Shown piece by piece: positions 37,089 to 44,534 of a DNA stretch of 64,000 nt. This DNA is from Candidatus Latescibacterota bacterium (GTDB lineage Bacteria > Latescibacterota > UBA2968 > UBA8231), in assembly GCA_965203175.1 (NCBI GenBank), contig OZ241867.1:3936001-4000000 (forward strand), in the 5' to 3' direction. Numbering within the stretch: the stretch's first letter is position 1; every line of letters starts with the position of its first letter. A model generated the notes under the pieces. The model did not search any database and was not told the DNA's origin. It worked only from the letters and a program-made list of their open reading frames with translations. Position numbers and translations under genes: made by a program.

Positions 37089-37134
37089 TATTTGCGACTA
37101 AACGCAAATAAACCAGCCCATCCCCGCGTGTCAA
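37089..37134 (-). promoter_or_regulatory. Putative sigma70 promoter with overlapping palindromic operator
   Basis: Minus strand TTGACA-16-TTTATT; TATTTGCG-N6-CGCAAATA at 37089-37110. Confidence 0.5.
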
Positions 37135-37208
37135 GTTGCTTTACACGCGCTCTTGATCTCCCTAAAATCACCCCACACCCGTCTATCAATCCTCTCAGGA
37201 GTAAGGAC

Positions 37209-39146
37209 ATGCCCGCCATAACTGCCAATATCCCACTCAACTCGCCAGCCCACTGGGCCGTGTGGCAGCGCCGCCTCTTCGACGCCTTGGACCAATCGGT
37301 GCAGCCCTTTCTCGACCATTTCACCCGCGAGGACGGCGAATTCATCTGGCAGGACGAGTGGGGCGGCGGCAGCCCCGACGATTTCTACGAGCCTTTTTTT
37401 AATTGGCCGCTCGTGTATCTGATGGGCGGCGGCGAGCACCTGTTGGACTTAGCCGACCGCCAGTGGGAGGCCATTACCCGCCAACTGACCCGCTTGGGCA
37501 CGGTTAGCAAGGAATACGGCATCCGCGAAGACCAGATGCATCAAGCCGAAAGCGACATCTGCTTTTACCACTTGTGCTTGGCCCACCCCAACGCCCCTCG
37601 GCGCGTCGAGCGGGCTTGTCGCTTTGCTGGCTTTTATCTCAACGAAGACCCCGAAGCGCAAAACTACGATCCCGAGCACAAAATCCTTCGCTCGGGCCTC
37701 AACGGCAGCCACGGCCCCTATTTCGCCCCGCTATCCGAACGCGACAAACAAAGTTACAACCCCTTGGGCGGCAGCATGGAAGTGTACAATTTGCCATTTT
37801 TCGACTTGCCCGGCATTACCAGTGTGCAGGACTTGGCCGACCCGGCTAAAGCCCGTTTGATGGGGCAGACCCTGTTCGACCGCTGGCGTCAGGGTGATAC
37901 GCCGACCAACTTGGCTGTCACCTCGCTGGTAACCAACGCCTTCCTGATTACCGGCGATGAAAAATACCGCGCTTGGGTTGTGGAATACACCGACGCTTGG
38001 GTAGAGCGTGCTCAAGCCAACGGCGGCATGTTGCCGGACAACGTCGGTCTGTCGGGCCAAGTGGGAGAGTACTGCGCTGGCAACTGGTACGGCGGGCGCT
38101 ACGGCTGGACTTTTCCACACGGTTTTTTGACCTTGCAGAAAGCCACGCTCGACGCGGCGGCCAATGCCTATCTGTTGACCCGCGACCGGGCCTATCTCGA
38201 CCTGCCACGCCAGCAGATGGACCGCATCTTGGAACAAGGGCGCATGGAGGATATCCGCGACCAGTACATGAGCGTGGCCGAGCGCTGGGCGAGCCAATTT
38301 GCCGCTATGGGCGAAAAAAGCGAGACCTTGCTGGTACCCTACCGCTACGGCGACGCCGGCTGGTTCGACTGGCAGCCCATGAGTCCGGTGTACCCGGTGA
38401 CGCTGTGGAATCTGTCCATGGACGAGGGCGACTGGGAGCGCATGGAGGCGATTCGGCAAAAAGAAGCGTTCGACTGGGCCGCGGTCTTTCCCTTTCACAA
38501 CAAAGAGGACTCGGGCCACGAGGCCCCTTGGGTGCGCTTTTTGGCTGGGGCTAACCTGGCCTATCCAGAGCAAATGTTGCAGGCCACGTACCAAGTGGCC
38601 GGCCGCCGCTTGGCTCAACTGCGCGCCGATCAAGACGTGGGCACCCGCCATCACGTTCACCACTGGCAATGGGGCAATCCCGTTTCCTCCGAAGCCCTCA
38701 TCCAGCTAACTATGGGCGGCCCACAACCCATCTACAACGGCGGCCTGCTGCACGCCCGCCTGCGCTACTTTGACGCCCAGCGCCGCCGCCCTGGCCTGCC
38801 CGCAGACGTCGGTGCCTTGGTGGAAAAGCTCGAAGCAAACCGCACGGTCGTGCGCTTGGTCAATTTGAATCACAACGAGGGCCGAGAACTGGTCATTCAG
38901 GGCGGCGCTTTTGGCGAGCACCGCTTTGGCCGGGCTGCGTATCAAAGCCGCACCAGCGAGTACCCGGGCTGGATGGGCGGCTATGCCGGCACGTACGCAG
39001 CTCCGCCCTTGGAGACAGAGGAGCGCCAGCTAGCCGTTGATGACAAGCACCTGAGCATCACCTTACCGCCCCATTGCGAAATCACCCTCGACCTAGAGAC
39101 CCAGCGCTACGTCAATGAGCCTTCGCACCACGCCGGGCCGTTTTAA
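37209..39146 (+). CDS. Large hypothetical protein (645 aa, Trp/Tyr/Asp-rich, possibly alpha/alpha-toroid enzyme)
   Basis: AGGAG-type RBS, long ORF with host-like codon usage, no family recognised with confidence. Confidence 0.7.
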   Translation: MPAITANIPLNSPAHWAVWQRRLFDALDQSVQPFLDHFTREDGEFIWQDEWGGGSPDDFYEPFFNWPLVYLMGGGEHLLDLADRQWEAITRQLTRLGTVSKEYGIREDQMHQAESDICFYHLCLAHPNAPRRVERACRFAGFYLNEDPEAQNYDPEHKILRSGLNGSHGPYFAPLSERDKQSYNPLGGSMEVYNLPFFDLPGITSVQDLADPAKARLMGQTLFDRWRQGDTPTNLAVTSLVTNAFLITGDEKYRAWVVEYTDAWVERAQANGGMLPDNVGLSGQVGEYCAGNWYGGRYGWTFPHGFLTLQKATLDAAANAYLLTRDRAYLDLPRQQMDRILEQGRMEDIRDQYMSVAERWASQFAAMGEKSETLLVPYRYGDAGWFDWQPMSPVYPVTLWNLSMDEGDWERMEAIRQKEAFDWAAVFPFHNKEDSGHEAPWVRFLAGANLAYPEQMLQATYQVAGRRLAQLRADQDVGTRHHVHHWQWGNPVSSEALIQLTMGGPQPIYNGGLLHARLRYFDAQRRRPGLPADVGALVEKLEANRTVVRLVNLNHNEGRELVIQGGAFGEHRFGRAAYQSRTSEYPGWMGGYAGTYAAPPLETEERQLAVDDKHLSITLPPHCEITLDLETQRYVNEPSHHAGPF

Positions 39147-39151
39147 GCGGC

Positions 39152-39180
39152 TTGACAGGTCATTAACGCTTTGGTTTATT
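39152..39180 (+). promoter_or_regulatory. Putative sigma70 promoter
   Basis: TTGACA-17-TTTATT with a TG extended -10 element. Confidence 0.6.
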
Positions 39181-39187
39181 GCAAATA

Positions 39188-39300
39188 AGTGCTCGAAGGG
39201 AGCCCTCAGGTCCGCGGTAAGGGTCAAACCCACCTCTCAGCAAAATAACAGCCTTCTTTCAGCCTGCGACGCGGACACCAGGCACTAACGAGAGAGGGTT
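39188..39300 (+). ncRNA. Candidate structured cis-regulatory 5' leader
   Basis: AGTGCT/GGCACT, GTCCGCG/CGCGGAC and GGGT-CAA-ACCC pairings; AACCCACCTCTC is largely complementary to the RBS region GAGAGAGGGTT. Confidence 0.5.
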
Positions 39301-39303
39301 GGC

Positions 39304-40014
39304 ATGTCTAGAGCACTTCCCCGTAAGCCTCATATAGATTCCCTCAAAAAGCAGGCCCGGCAGCTACTCCAAGCGCACCGCGAGGGTCGGCCAGAAAGCC
39401 TCCGCAGCATTCGGACCTATATGCCTCATTTAGGCTCATTGTCCGACGAGGCCGTCCTGCAAAGGCCATTTACCTTGCAACAGGCCCAATGCGTCCTCAG
39501 CCGCGAGTATGGGTTTAGCAATTGGGCAGAATTGGTCCGAGCTGTCGAGATTATCCGTCAGGCCGAGTCAGCTATGCTGAGCCAAGTCGATGACGCTTTG
39601 CGCAACGGTCAATCTATCCATGTGTTGATCCCCGAGCACATGGCGGCGAATGTTGCCCAAAGGCTGACCGCTCATTGCGGCCAAAATCGGGTACTCTTGG
39701 TAGCTCGCGTAAGCCAAGAGCCGTTCAATGGCTGGGTCGACCCGATAGCCGCAGCGGCAGTGGTAGTTAGTCCTCCTGGAGAGTTGGGCTTCCTCCACAT
39801 GCATGAACGCTTGCAAAAACCCGAAGGGCCATGGGATTTCGAGCAGCTTTTATCTGAAGCCCACGCCTTCGTGAACGTGCCGTTCAGAGAGGAACGGACG
39901 CCTTTGATCATTTCCGGTCCAGATGAAGAAACAGGTGCTGTCCGCGACCTGATTTCCATGTATCTGACGGAGTTTTATGGGTTATACGGTTCGATGATGG
40001 ACCATCGATATTGA
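39304..40014 (+). CDS. LPxxP-LKKQA / REYGF-W N-terminal domain fused to a degenerate SecA NBD1 fragment
   Basis: MSRALPRKPHIDSLKKQARQLL...AQCVLSREYGFSNW; C-terminal GQSIHV...GELGF...ERTPLIISGP. Confidence 0.75.
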   Translation: MSRALPRKPHIDSLKKQARQLLQAHREGRPESLRSIRTYMPHLGSLSDEAVLQRPFTLQQAQCVLSREYGFSNWAELVRAVEIIRQAESAMLSQVDDALRNGQSIHVLIPEHMAANVAQRLTAHCGQNRVLLVARVSQEPFNGWVDPIAAAAVVVSPPGELGFLHMHERLQKPEGPWDFEQLLSEAHAFVNVPFREERTPLIISGPDEETGAVRDLISMYLTEFYGLYGSMMDHRY

Positions 40015-40809: not shown

Positions 40810-41748
40810 ATGAACCAAATCGGGCCTTTCCCGATCAATAAGACCCACGAAGGAGATTGTCTAGAACTGATTCCGCAACTTCCGGACGAGTCCGTGAATA
40901 TAGTTGTGACGAGTCCTCCCTATTGGGGGCAAAGGCACTCAGAAGGGATCGGTATCGAAAAAGACCCGAGGGATTATCTACAGTTTCTCACGAAAGCCTT
41001 TGTGGAAGTTTTACCGAAGTTGAGACCGGAAGGGATTCTTTGGATCAATATAGGAGACGCTTACAACACCCCTGTGAACTGGAATCAGAAAGCATGGAAG
41101 TTCAGCACCTTGGGTGCAAAAAAACAAGGCTTTTCGGAAGACAATTCAGCGTACACCAAACCTCGGGCGCGGCGAAAAGCATTTATCGATAAGGATGAAA
41201 CGTGGCTTCAGTATGGCAATCTTCTGGCGCTCCCATATCGTCTTATTATCTCTCTTTGCGACGCGGGCTACTTGTTCCGGGGAGAAGTAATTTGGCGAAA
41301 GAAAAATGCCATGCCTGAGGGCCGCTGCCGACGCCCGCATCGTCAACACGAATCGATTTACTTGCTGACAAAGAGCGAGCGGCATGGTTTTCGCGTAACA
41401 CCTCCGATTAAGAGCGTGTGGGAGTTCGCAAACGAGAAGATTGACGGGCTCAAGCATTTCTCACGCTTCCCCAAGGAATTGCCAATTCGTTGCATTAAGG
41501 CGTACGGAACCTGTGGAGAAGATGTTGTGGTTTTAGATCCGTTCTCTGGATCGGGCACTACAGGAATCGCGGCACTGACCCTTGGCTGTTCCTACATAGG
41601 ATTTGAAGTTGACCCCGAGCAAGTTCAGGCCTCCAACAAACGCTTAGAGGAAAGCAAAGGGCCAAATTTGGAATTATTTCCGAAATCGGAGACTCTCCGA
41701 AACGACGAACCTAGTGAAGGCATCGTCCGGGTCGGTGAAGTCACATGA
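40810..41748 (+). CDS. DNA methyltransferase, beta class, probably N4-cytosine
   Basis: Motif IV TSPPY N-terminal; motif I LDPFSGSGTT C-terminal. Confidence 0.92.
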   Translation: MNQIGPFPINKTHEGDCLELIPQLPDESVNIVVTSPPYWGQRHSEGIGIEKDPRDYLQFLTKAFVEVLPKLRPEGILWINIGDAYNTPVNWNQKAWKFSTLGAKKQGFSEDNSAYTKPRARRKAFIDKDETWLQYGNLLALPYRLIISLCDAGYLFRGEVIWRKKNAMPEGRCRRPHRQHESIYLLTKSERHGFRVTPPIKSVWEFANEKIDGLKHFSRFPKELPIRCIKAYGTCGEDVVVLDPFSGSGTTGIAALTLGCSYIGFEVDPEQVQASNKRLEESKGPNLELFPKSETLRNDEPSEGIVRVGEVT

Positions 41749-42837
41749 ATAAATTCGTGCCTTTGCTAGGGGGGTATCGGGAGGAGTTGGACGAGTGTTC
41801 CTATTGTAAGAAAAGCATGCTGAGAAAAAGCCGTCGCTTTCTATGTCTTTTCTCTTAGCGTTCCTTTGATCCTGACCTTCTCCGGTAAAAATTTTCCCCA
41901 ATTCGCCGCGATTGACGGGTTCAGGACTAGGGAAACTCTTGCAATCCATCGTCCATAGCGGGGAAATGTAGCTAGCATCAACGAGTGCTTGACTCATAGG
42001 AACATCGTCTGTTCGGCGTTCCGCAAAACTCGCCTTGACGTGAACGACCCCAATCATCCGTTCGTTTGCTCCCTCGCCGACCGTTAGCATAATATCCACT
42101 TTGTCTGGTTCAAGGCGGTGACCAACGTCGATACCGCAAAGAATCCTCGCCTTACGCTCGGAATCTTTACGTACCATGTTGATCCCTTGTTTTGCCAAAG
42201 TATCACCGTAATGCTTTTCGAGAACCAACTCCAAGGCCCAACCAGCAGTTCGTTTCCAGCTTTGCGCAAAGTCTAAGCGAGCATACTGGGCAGGATGGTT
42301 GTATGGGTCACAGTAGGCGCGATATACGAGAAACCACCAGAGATCGGAGGGGTTAGCTTGAGGCCAGAGTTCAACGGCTTTCATGAACGCATTGGCCACA
42401 CTTTCCATCTTAATCGTCTCGGCTCGCGGCTCTCCAATCCCAGAGTCGGCGAGCTGAGCGAGTCCATTTCGCAACGTTAGAACTATTTCCGTGAACTGCT
42501 CCACGGTAGCACCTTCAAGGCGGTACGTAGCATCGTATTCACCATAGGGAAAGTGAAGAATGAGGTCATTGTCGACTTCTTCTGGAGTAATTGAGCGTTT
42601 TATGGACGGAGCGTTCCCGTCTATGCCTTCTGCAAGGTCGCTCAGAGTTTTGCCATAGAGTGAGAGCAGAGACATAACCACATCAAGACCGGGGAGGGCC
42701 GCACCGCTCTCGAACGCGTGGATCCACCCTGGCCCCAAAACAAGGTTACTTTCGACCTGCTCAGGCTCAAGTTGGGATTCCTGACGAAATGTATGCAGTC
42801 GCCGGAAAAGCTGTGAGAGGTAATCGCTACGGGTCAT
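41674..42837 (-). CDS. Putative type II restriction endonuclease (PD-(D/E)xK, BsaWI/CCGG-family-like) with N-terminal XRE-type HTH
   Basis: HTH-like N-terminus (LHTFRQES...IHAFESG..PGLD..LYG), QSWKRTAG.ALE, PDKVD, VKASFAER; adjacent MTase. Confidence 0.72.
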   Translation of the reverse strand: MTRSDYLSQLFRRLHTFRQESQLEPEQVESNLVLGPGWIHAFESGAALPGLDVVMSLLSLYGKTLSDLAEGIDGNAPSIKRSITPEEVDNDLILHFPYGEYDATYRLEGATVEQFTEIVLTLRNGLAQLADSGIGEPRAETIKMESVANAFMKAVELWPQANPSDLWWFLVYRAYCDPYNHPAQYARLDFAQSWKRTAGWALELVLEKHYGDTLAKQGINMVRKDSERKARILCGIDVGHRLEPDKVDIMLTVGEGANERMIGVVHVKASFAERRTDDVPMSQALVDASYISPLWTMDCKSFPSPEPVNRGELGKIFTGEGQDQRNAKRKDIESDGFFSACFSYNRNTRPTPPDTPLAKARIYSCDFTDPDDAFTRFVVSESLRFRK

Positions 42838-42838
42838 G

Positions 42839-42851
42839 TTTAGCTTTGGAA
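42839..42851. repeat. Right copy of 13-bp direct repeat (polX 3' end)
   Basis: TTTAGCTTTGGAA; on the minus strand it reads F-Q-S-stop of polX. Confidence 0.9.
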
Positions 42852-44534
42852 CCAAGCGGCAATGGCTTCGCGGCTGAGCGCGTTGGGGATGTCGGCGGCG
42901 CGGAGCCAGCCCTTGCGGGCAATGCCGATACCGTAGCCGAGATGGTCCAGGCCACCGACGCTGTGGGCGTCGGTGTTGACGGCGATTTGGACGCCGCGGT
43001 CGCGCGCCTTTTTGACGTGCCGCCAGTCGAGGTCGAGTCGCGACGGGTGGGCGTTGATTTCGAGGGCGACCCCACAGCGGGCGGCAGCTTCGATGATTGG
43101 GTCCATATCGACGGCATAGCCTTCGCGGTTGAGGAGCAAGCGCCCGGTTGGATGGCCGACGATGGTGGTCGCCGGATGCTCGATGGCGCGGACGATGCGG
43201 GCGGTCATAGCGTCGCGGCTCAAGTTGAACTGCGAATGGACCGAGGCGACTACGAAGTCGAATTGGGCGAGCAAGTCGTCGTCGTAGTCGAGCGAGCCGT
43301 CGCCGAGGATATCCGACTCAATGCCCTTGAAGATGCGGAAGGGAGCCAATTCCTCGTTGAGCTGGTCGATTTCCTCCCATTGGCGCTGGACATCCTCAAC
43401 GCGAAGCCCACCGGCGTAGGCTGCGGCTTGGCTGTGGTCGGCAATGCCCATGTACTCAAAGCCGTGTTCTTGCACGGCGTGGGCCATGGCCTCCAAGCTA
43501 TCGGCCCCATCCGAATAGGTCGAATGCACGTGGAGCATACCGCGAATGTCGGCGGCTGTTACCAACTCAGGTAGTGTGTCGGCGGCTGCGGCCTCGACTT
43601 CGCCTTGGTTTTCGCGCAACTCCGGCGGGATGTAGGCGAGGCCCAAGGCGGCGAATAAAGCCGCTTCATCCGCGCACTCGATGCGCTCGTCGCCGCGCCA
43701 GAGTCCGCGTTCGTCGAGGACTAGCCCGCGCTCTGCGGCTTTGGCGCGCAGTGCGACGCGGTGTTCCTCGCTGCCTGTGTAGTAGTGTAGGGCCGCAGAG
43801 AAGGCATCGTCTGAGACTATATGCAGGTTGGCTTGTAGCCCACTGGACAGTCGTCCTGCGCCCGGTGAGGAGACTTCGGCTATATCCGGATGGGAGCCAA
43901 AGGCCGCAGTCGCGGCCTCGGCGTCGGTGGTGCTGATTACGAAGTCGAGTTGCTGGACTGTTTCTCGCGCTCGGCGCAGCTCTCCGGCGATGGCAAAGTG
44001 CTGCGCGTGGGAGCACAGGGTTGTGAGCAGACTTTGGGCGCTCTGGTGTGCGCTATCGACGCGGCAGTGGCCCTCGTGGGCGCGAATGAACCCGACGCCC
44101 TTGAGAATGGTTGCCTGGGTCTTGGAGCCAAAGCCCTTGAGGGCGGCGAGTTGGCCGTCGCGACAGGCTTGTTCGAGGGCGTCGAGGGTCTCAATGCCGA
44201 GGGCCTTGCGGATGGCGACGATCTTGCGCGGCCCCAAGCCGGGGACTCTCAGCATGTCGAGCAGCCCCTCCGGCGTTGCGGCCCGCAGGTCTTCATAAGC
44301 TTGGGCCGTGCCGGTGTCGGCCAACTCGGCGACTAGTTCAGCCACGCTGTCGCCGATACCTTTGACCTCGGTTAGAGTCCCGGCGGCGAGAAGTTCGTCA
44401 AGAGGGGATGTTAGGGTTTCGAGGGCGCGCACGGCATTGGCGTAGGCGCGCACCCGGAAGGGGGAGGCTCCGCTGAGTTCGAGGAGGGTGGCGTACTCTT
44501 CGACAAAATCCGCTGCGATCCGGGCCGTTATCAT
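42840..44534 (-). CDS. polX: PolX-PHP protein, non-canonical polymerase site
   Basis: FRVRAY, HhH (VPGLGPRK), YTGS.EH, IPPELRE, PHP motifs HVHSTYSDG, DHS, HPTGR, TDAH; ATGA overlap with the upstream gene. Confidence 0.92.
   Translation of the reverse strand: MITARIAADFVEEYATLLELSGASPFRVRAYANAVRALETLTSPLDELLAAGTLTEVKGIGDSVAELVAELADTGTAQAYEDLRAATPEGLLDMLRVPGLGPRKIVAIRKALGIETLDALEQACRDGQLAALKGFGSKTQATILKGVGFIRAHEGHCRVDSAHQSAQSLLTTLCSHAQHFAIAGELRRARETVQQLDFVISTTDAEAATAAFGSHPDIAEVSSPGAGRLSSGLQANLHIVSDDAFSAALHYYTGSEEHRVALRAKAAERGLVLDERGLWRGDERIECADEAALFAALGLAYIPPELRENQGEVEAAAADTLPELVTAADIRGMLHVHSTYSDGADSLEAMAHAVQEHGFEYMGIADHSQAAAYAGGLRVEDVQRQWEEIDQLNEELAPFRIFKGIESDILGDGSLDYDDDLLAQFDFVVASVHSQFNLSRDAMTARIVRAIEHPATTIVGHPTGRLLLNREGYAVDMDPIIEAAARCGVALEINAHPSRLDLDWRHVKKARDRGVQIAVNTDAHSVGGLDHLGYGIGIARKGWLRAADIPNALSREAIAAWFQS

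Follow-up and report, generated by a model that had tools for sequence, protein, structure and literature searches.

A double-pseudoknot leader RNA that pairs the Shine-Dalgarno sequence and travels with one N-terminal protein domain in Candidatus Latescibacterota and other bacteria

In the Escherichia coli rpsO (S15) leader, a pseudoknot in the 5' untranslated region (5' UTR) takes in the ribosome-binding region, and the downstream gene encodes a small, all-helical protein of about 85–90 amino acids (aa). In phage T4 gene 32, a 5' pseudoknot lies at the start of the mRNA, and the encoded protein binds it and represses its own translation. In the ZTP (pfl) motif, a variable linker and a long-range pseudoknot connect two sub-domains; ZTP, SAM-II and preQ1-II, which are pseudoknotted translational OFF riboswitches and all Rfam families, capture the Shine-Dalgarno (SD) sequence within the folded state or beside it and have a highly conserved core. 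The DUF3800 motifs and the HEARO/IS605-orfB RNAs are tied almost exclusively to one protein family and occur in multiple copies. Few structured leaders are conserved across many phyla, and the majority of those known are metabolite riboswitches. In the present study, we analyzed a window of 64,000 nucleotides (nt) from a Candidatus Latescibacterota bacterium (assembly GCA_965203175.1, contig OZ241867.1, positions 3,936,001 to 4,000,000 of the forward strand), and we describe a leader RNA at 39187–39306 of this window, upstream of an open reading frame (ORF) of 236 aa. We conclude with high confidence that this is a conserved RNA that sequesters the SD sequence, and that it is coupled to the N-terminal domain (N-domain) of the protein encoded downstream.

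The locus shares features with each of these systems. Both features of rpsO recur here, with the small helical domain as the candidate effector, and by analogy the two may follow one logic, in which synthesis is tied to the pool of free protein. Unlike S15, which has its primary target in rRNA, the present domain is multi-copy and fused to many C-terminal parts, and the motif keeps its conservation from phylum to phylum; ribosomal-protein leaders, by contrast, usually have a narrow distribution. Unlike the present domain, gp32 is a general single-strand binder, with no sequence or fold relation to the N-domain, and the present motif differs further in having a second pseudoknot and an explicit anti-SD helix. 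The architecture of ZTP and the SD capture and conserved core of ZTP, SAM-II and preQ1-II are also found here; unlike those RNAs, the leader precedes one protein domain and not a metabolic pathway, and no Rfam score was obtained on 15 copies. The DUF3800 motifs and HEARO/IS605-orfB RNAs, which are like the present motif in their exclusive tie and copy number, are not known to be SD-sequestering leaders before a domain shared by unrelated proteins. The RNA and the domain each form a new family; the principle, SD sequestration, is known, and the coupling at the level of a domain is unusual. The accessible portions of the literature searched, which excluded the supplementary motif lists of large discovery papers, held no description of the RNA or the domain, and neither did the accessible part of preprint 10.64898/2026.10.21.760802. 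No bacterial description of domain-level autogenous control was found in those portions of the literature.

The structure was studied in two alignments, A7 (81 distinct rows, collected domain-first) and A9 (71 independent metagenome rows, collected RNA-first), and with two covariance models, R1 (of the window type) and R2 (of 74 matches). Six helices were supported by comparison: P1, P2, P3, P4, the pseudoknot helix PK1 and a long-range helix that forms a second pseudoknot. Their positions in the window, with the gene that follows, are given below.

39187–39306, + strand: whole RNA motif, 5' UTR through the ATG; covariance-model matches of 154.4 bits (R1) and 115.8 bits (R2)
39191–39194 with 39200–39203, + strand: P1 hairpin, GCUC / loop GAAGG / GAGC; 4 of 4 pairs changed on both sides, 93.7% paired in A7 and 97.9% in A9
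39197–39199, + strand: 5' strand of PK1, AGG, the last three bases of the P1 loop; pairs with 39233–39235, longer in relatives
39210–39216, + strand: 5' strand of the long-range helix, GUCCGCG; 96.4% of cells paired
39221–39224 with 39228–39231, + strand: P2 hairpin, GGGU-CAA-ACCC; 100% paired, closing pair C-G in 45, U-A in 24 and A-U in 8
39233–39235, + strand: 3' strand of PK1, CCU after a conserved A at 39232; concerted change
39249–39260, + strand: 5' strand of P3, the CU-rich anti-SD CAGCCUUCUUUC; 12 of 12 pairs changed on both sides, present in the minimum-energy fold
39262–39266 with 39279–39283, + strand: P4 hairpin, GCCUG...CAGGC; 98.3% paired, one pair U-A in 40 and C-G in 33
39270–39276, + strand: 3' strand of the long-range helix, CGCGGAC inside the P4 loop; conserved and covarying
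39290–39301, + strand: 3' strand of P3, GAGAGAGGGUUG, which includes the SD sequence; seen in the minimum-energy fold, covariation and unpaired probability
39304–40014, + strand: ORF of 236 aa, with its ATG at 39304
39304–39570, + strand: coding region of the N-domain, about 85–89 aa and five helices (alignments A5 and A8)

The comparative evidence was consistent between the two alignments. In A7, 92.9% of 2865 cells were paired, compared with 79.9% in shuffles and 42–49% with slid partners; 27 of 36 pairs had changed on both sides, and none of 500 shuffles reached any observed measure. In A9, the paired cells also amounted to 92.9% (77.0% in shuffles) and 26 of 29 pairs had changed on both sides, and in both alignments the counts for P1–P4 lean towards the structure, since these four helices are in the search model to which the alignments were fitted. 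RNAalifold alone predicted P1–P4 and showed compensation in 20 of 22 pairs. Neither PK1 nor the long-range helix is in the search model, yet both covary. A first-pass annotation made from the sequence alone had proposed a regulatory RNA here and had named conservation and covariation upstream of homologues as its check; the A7 figures supplied both. It had also recognized the inner GGGT-CAA-ACCC hairpin (39221–39231), which is P2 and in which all 4 pairs have changed on both sides.

The strands of PK1 changed in concert among relatives, as AAGG/CCUU, UAAGG/CCUUA, CAGG/CCUG, CCGG/CCGG, GGGG/CCCC, UGAG/CUCA, GUCG/CGAC and GUUG/CAAC. The mean helix length was 4.49 within a sequence and 3.22 across sequences, and the duplex energy was −5.23 kcal/mol, compared with −3.10 kcal/mol for permuted partners (0 of 200 permutations). 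The long-range helix was mostly invariant. One of its pairs was U-A in 72 rows and had become A-U in 6 of 80 rows, all in one Poribacteria clade; a few rows carried A-U at both ends, and locus L279 showed a double compensatory swap, GCUCGCG/GCGAGC. These results bore out the perfect 7-bp stem of GTCCGCG with CGCGGAC that had been read in the window earlier. For P3, the duplex energy was −12.45, compared with −8.43 when partners were permuted. The core bases CC.C (5' strand), AAGGG and G.GG (3' strand) were conserved in at least 95% of the 81 rows, and G39271, G39273 and G39274 were invariant in all of them.

Some rows departed from this structure. An A.C mismatch was present in the long-range helix at L043, L044 and L122, and its innermost position was unpaired in 16 of 80 rows. 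The outermost pair of P3 was unpaired in 37 of the 77 rows with letters there, and the fourth pair of PK1 in 24 of 73, partly because the register is shifted by one base in the Poribacteria clade. The linkers were short: 0–3 nt before the PK1 strand in the P1 loop, 2–6 nt from the 5' arm of P4 to the long-range strand and, in almost all copies, 1–3 nt after that strand. Such lengths fit classical H-type pseudoknot geometry; therefore, all six helices can coexist.

Several alternative pairings were examined, among them the switch that the first-pass annotation had placed at this site. It had the segment AACCCACCTCTC (39227–39238) alternate between GGGU and the ribosome-binding site (RBS) region GAGAGAGGGTT (39290–39300), inside an outer stem of AGTGCT (39188–39193) with GGCACT (39281–39286). 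These pairings exist in the window: the outer stem has 6 pairs including one G-U, the switch has 5 + 5 pairs round a small internal loop, and some of the bases are conserved, so that 67.1% of cells pair. Neither pairing covaried. Shuffles gave 65.7% jointly for the two, the number of pairs changed on both sides was 9 compared with 10.3 in shuffles (466 of 500 reaching 9), and the duplex energy of the strand after P2 with the SD was −3.01 within a sequence and −3.04 with permuted partners. The strands are moreover already used by the covarying P1, P4, P2 and PK1, the bases of the outer stem belonging to P1 and P4. A switch of this form is thus scarcely credible; the pairing of ACCCACCUCUC with the RBS lacks covariation, and the actual anti-SD is another segment, 39249–39260. 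The two pseudoknots had been overlooked. A pairing of the J1/2 strand (CCUC) with the SD was also tried and gave no signal (−3.90 vs. −3.82 kcal/mol).

The central claim that the SD is sequestered was upheld in a different helix. In every lineage, the 3' strand of P3 was made up of the SD and the nucleotides between it and the start codon, and the SD variants GAGGG, GGAG and AGGAGG were each matched by a compensatory change in P3. The unpaired probability of the SD window had a mean of 0.20 and a median of 0.15 over 151 distinct copies, and was 0.002 in the window copy. The minimum-energy fold of that copy pairs CAGCCUUCUUUC (39249–39260) with GAGAGAGGGUUG (39290–39301) round the GCCUG...CAGGC hairpin. 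The window leader as a whole (125 nt), taken alone, folded no better than chance, at −35.0 kcal/mol compared with −36.1 ± 3.8 kcal/mol for dinucleotide shuffles (z = +0.29; 118 of 200 shuffles as good). P3 is rich in G-U pairs and also has A-U pairs, and the frequent G-U pairs fit an RNA of the sense strand and not a DNA site. The conserved fold pairs the SD in P3; therefore, the conserved state is the one in which translation is off, and the element controls the frequency of ribosome starts on its mRNA.

It is conceivable that this control involves no switch at all, the hairpin only damping translation constitutively or protecting the 5' end of the mRNA. The P3–P4 hairpin of the window copy folds at −20 kcal/mol alone, so the OFF hairpin is thermodynamically dominant without an effector, and operon-internal copies keep only the P3–P4 half. 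A damping hairpin, however, needs neither the 5' domain nor the two pseudoknots, all of which are kept by selection, and we consider this explanation very improbable. Termination gave no further alternative: no terminator-like site was found on the + strand between 39187 and 39306, such as an attenuator with an intrinsic terminator would have.

To Rfam, the RNA is a stranger, as the first-pass annotation had supposed. Rfam 15 gave for the window copy (E ≤ 10) only a chance HOTAIR_2 match outside the leader (13.8 bits, E 2.1), and for 14 diverse copies nothing on the motif at E ≤ 1.

The coupling of the RNA to the N-domain was evident from both directions. In the domain-first direction, an N-domain profile found 455 relatives in species-representative genomes, and the best 80 loci were examined. 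Among these best 80 of 455, 78 carried the RNA in their own transcription unit: at 70 of the 80 loci, the R2 match ended at the start codon (one of these, L066, being weak), and at 8 the RNA lay about 1 kb upstream, before a SnoaL-like first gene of the unit. The other 2 of the 80, both from Gemmatimonadaceae, gave no RNA match even with filters off; there, the gene starts 45–65 nt after another gene. In the RNA-first direction, an RNA-only pattern was run over metagenome contigs and gave at least 80 loci. Among the matches listed, 69 loci (71 copies) were true R2 matches and 11 were chance pattern matches; all 69 evaluable copies were followed by the N-domain, and 2 copies were cut by contig ends. 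The domain hidden Markov model matched right downstream in 65 of these loci, in L187, in L149 (frameshifted) and after both second copies. In five further genomes, 48 RNA matches and 49 domain loci were found. There, 47 of the 48 RNAs were in a unit with the domain (46 directly preceding it), and 47 of the 49 domain loci had the RNA; the other 2 had no full RNA, one of them keeping the 3' half only. As an association, the element thus occupies the 5' UTR of the candidate binder's own gene or operon, as an autogenous leader does.

Three loci of these surveys have an unusual layout. At L279 (G159:C61:35751-36750), the RNA is followed by a 96-aa FliG_C-like ORF and then by an ORF in another frame with two N-domain repeats. 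L276 (G110:C2:1565245-1565370) is a decayed RNA with both long-range strands mutated and no N-domain ORF downstream. L277 (G110:C1:1764900-1766100) is an N-domain gene directly after an upstream gene, with the 3' half of the RNA only; this half-motif retains the anti-SD, P4 with its CGCGGAC loop and the SD. Judged from such arrangements, half-motifs seem to arise when the gene becomes operon-internal.

The source genome (G000, one contig, 6.58 Mb) contains 4 leader RNAs and 4 N-domains. Three of the RNA copies directly precede N-domain genes of 236, 578 and 232 aa; the frame of the 578-aa gene is open over 597 codons and that of the 232-aa gene over 303 codons. The fourth RNA precedes a 339-aa SnoaL_2-like gene, followed by a 142-aa gene with the N-domain only. 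Right after the stop of the 339-aa gene, the 142-aa gene (L002:1498-1800; G000:C1:896445-896750, − strand) has only an SD-proximal remnant of the motif. At L045 (G019:C1), the SnoaL-like gene and the next N-domain gene each have a full RNA, about 1.2 kb apart. Compared with this relative, which keeps it, the source genome has evidently lost the second RNA copy.

The protein downstream of the window leader had no family in Pfam, NCBIfam, PADLOC or PHROGs. It has 55 homologues, none with a recorded Pfam domain; only 5 are named in their source, all as hypothetical protein, and the closest named ones are from Candidatus Latescibacterota. An AlphaFold2 model of the N-domain has five helices (pLDDT 90.5). 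The N-domain itself matched no family in the four collections, all matches falling on C-terminal parts, and no PDB entry by sequence. Structure searches assigned no fold (Foldseek against PDB, best E 2.4; VIA-align wide, best Z 3.8), which does not imply a novel fold. A possible homology to the REV1 C-terminal domain appeared at E 0.02 with a 10-row profile, fell to E 0.6 with a 65-row profile, and was dropped. The family is large: 9302 cluster representatives matched at E ≤ 0.001, and at least 4584 clusters (50% identity) at E ≤ 1e-10. In 143 of the 150 best representatives, the best profile match began within the first 20 residues. The domain had been predicted to be small, basic and helical. 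The model agrees with the helical part, and the domain is only moderately basic, with a mean net charge of +2.8, a mean pI of 9.1 and conserved basic positions at 15, 19, 35, 37 and 67.

What follows the domain varied widely. Among 43 RNA-first ORFs, the C-terminal parts were ankyrin in 24, leucine-rich repeat (LRR) in 7, WD40 in 1, FliG_C in 1, Clp_N in 2 and DUF1835 in 3, with 5 having no family. In a second set, of 35 proteins, 19 had ankyrin; Sigma54_activat, FliG_N, FliG_C, PcfJ and BFN + Clp_N also occurred, 9 had none, and weak matches below the cut-off were seen to SnoaL_2 and DUF4350. The RNA and the domain thus travel together before very different C-terminal parts, and the idea of a portable module of RNA and N-terminal domain was well founded.

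The motif is widespread. A short pattern of the shared core was found in 14 of 41 related genomes and the reversed control pattern in none. With R1, the motif was detected in 18 of 31 genomes of the genus, and with R2 in 58 of 151 sampled genomes of the phylum, at 1–16 copies each. It occurs in at least 9 phyla; the record titles include Poribacteria, Latescibacterota, Acidobacteriota, Verrucomicrobiota, Gemmatimonadota, Chloroflexota, metagenome-assembled genomes of the delta-/Myxococcota type and of Gammaproteobacteria, and an Aliifodinibius isolate. Among the best 80 loci, two isolates carry the module, the cultured carriers belonging to Acidobacteriaceae and Aliifodinibius, and direct tests are therefore feasible in cultured strains. 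Viral contigs gave 14 pattern matches, of which 1 was a true model match, with no sign of phage enrichment.

The best reading of these results is a translational OFF element, with the N-domain itself probably as its binder. One and the same protein domain accompanies the RNA essentially everywhere, irrespective of what follows that domain; therefore, the domain is the simplest effector. We put its role as the effector of the leader, which is suggested by this association, at close to an even chance. The fold has two halves. In the 5' domain, the P1 hairpin has its loop engaged in an H-type pseudoknot with the bases just after P2. The long-range helix (6–7 bp) ties this domain to the P4 loop; it would stack on P4–P3 and so couple the 5' domain to the OFF state. 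P4 sits on P3, where the SD and the nucleotides from there to the start codon are paired by the CU-rich strand. In the proposed mechanism, free N-domain protein, possibly while nascent on its own mRNA, would attach to the pseudoknotted core and hold P3 closed, and the amount of free domain would determine how much of each family member is made. This would be autogenous translational repression of the kind known from ribosomal-protein and T4 gene 32 leaders. We infer the switching as such, the N-domain as effector and the sign of the effect. If the N-domain is the effector, this would be the first autogenous translational control attached to a domain and not to a gene.

Several observations weigh against this mechanism, in addition to the lean of the pair counts stated above. 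The RNA core is nearly invariant across phyla, which is commoner among small-molecule riboswitches than among leaders that bind proteins. The N-domain resembles no known RNA-binding fold in the Foldseek and VIA searches, a result that is still compatible with binding. Net charge varies from −7 to +8 among its members, some of which are acidic. The domain often occurs 2–3 times in tandem (P0056-P0205; a second, partial domain in the L171:8543 copy), and such repetition is unusual for an autoregulatory RNA-binding domain. The P3–P4 hairpin is stable without any effector. Two domain genes lack the RNA, and others have the 3' half only. An ON state has at most a candidate pairing, weak and only hinted at by its energy: that of the P1 loop plus its 3' arm with the anti-SD (−5.18 vs. 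−4.76 kcal/mol, 0 of 200).

The strongest rival, which we regard as unlikely, is an orphan riboswitch, in which the double-pseudoknot core would bind a small molecule or ion and stabilize the P4–P3 stack, translation would be turned off, and the N-domain genes would be its regulon. The fold is intricate, with paired and unpaired bases near-invariant across at least 9 phyla, and it has two sub-domains, a variable linker, a long-range helix and an SD-sequestering platform. A structured, conserved and covarying RNA of the kind expected of an aptamer is indeed present, as is an expression platform coupled to it: P3 pairs the SD and the long-range helix joins P4 to the 5' domain. The fold searches also gave no sign of the N-domain as an RNA binder. 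The genes downstream, however, do not share the metabolism or transport of one ligand, and the N-domain alone is common to them. Riboswitch classes normally precede several unrelated gene families of one pathway, whereas this RNA is found with one protein domain only, fused mainly to ankyrin, LRR and WD40; no transporter or biosynthetic gene is attached, and two copies are fused to AAA+ (Sigma54_activat) or nuclease (BFN) parts. No Rfam family matches either. Should the riboswitch be real, it would be a new class with an unusual regulon.

A third explanation is that the leader responds to a different trans factor (a small RNA or a separate RNA-binding protein) or to a physical cue, for example temperature; the N-domain genes would then be co-regulated with no contact between domain and RNA. 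One regulator would suit up to 16 copies per genome with nearly identical cores, and the many G-U and A-U pairs of P3 are also compatible with this. A separate regulator would, however, have to co-occur in at least 9 phyla, and no conserved neighbor gene was seen in the short flanks, where no systematic search was made. As for temperature, a thermometer is a simple, weak SD hairpin that needs neither a double pseudoknot nor an invariant core; P3 is rich in G-U and A-U pairs, yet two covarying pseudoknots and an invariant core accompany it. We consider this third explanation improbable.

Repression by the N-domain can be extended to a portable cassette, a view we put forward tentatively and consider, as a whole, rather less likely than not. 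The cassette would consist of the promoter, the double-pseudoknot leader and the first ~85 codons, placed before many protein-binding modules such as ankyrin, LRR, WD40, FliG-like and Clp_N parts. The N-domain would be a common docking or adaptor domain, and the leader would gauge how much domain is undocked, perhaps in cis during translation. Up to 16 paralogues could in this way be balanced against one shared partner. In its logic, the N-domain would be comparable to the F-box, which stands before variable repeat domains. The module also offers a way into a large group of bacterial proteins with ankyrin, LRR and WD40 repeats, among them proteins from sponge-associated lineages.

The promoter of the cassette was read in the window as two hexamers.

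39152–39157, + strand: TTGACA, −35 hexamer
39175–39180, + strand: TTTATT, −10-like hexamer, after a spacer of 17 nt

The first-pass annotation had called this promoter good. The hexamers and their spacing are indeed there, and in 101 of 152 distinct upstream regions, a pair of sigma-70-like hexamers matching at 8 or more of 12 positions ended 2–8 nt 5' of the motif start; a strict promoter scan of the window leader returned 0 sites, because the second base of the −10 is T. In paralogous copies, the site of this −10 reads TATCTT or TATCCT. The position of the promoter puts the transcript start probably near 39187. The promoter ends 2–8 nt before the motif; therefore, the motif is the whole 5' UTR. 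It measures about 120–135 nt, and the window leader about 115 nt. An 868-nt assembled metatranscriptome contig of a close relative covers 38891–39758 and joins the 3' end of the upstream ORF to the leader; it could stem from read-through or DNA and is silent on the start site and the level of transcription.

At three loci (L043, L054 and L010), there is no ATG, GTG or TTG at the start position of the model, or a short ORF only; these may be decaying copies or unusual starts. A 5S rRNA gene (L126:2942-3057, − strand) lies just downstream of one N-domain gene. In the window, the ORF directly upstream of the leader (37092–39146, 684 aa) had no Pfam family above the cut-off. Further downstream, an ORF for an N6_N4_Mtase DNA methylase (40810–41748, + strand) is convergent with an ORF carrying HTH_31 and a BsaWI-like restriction endonuclease domain (41674–42855, − strand), and from their domains the two (40810–42855) look like a type II restriction-modification pair.

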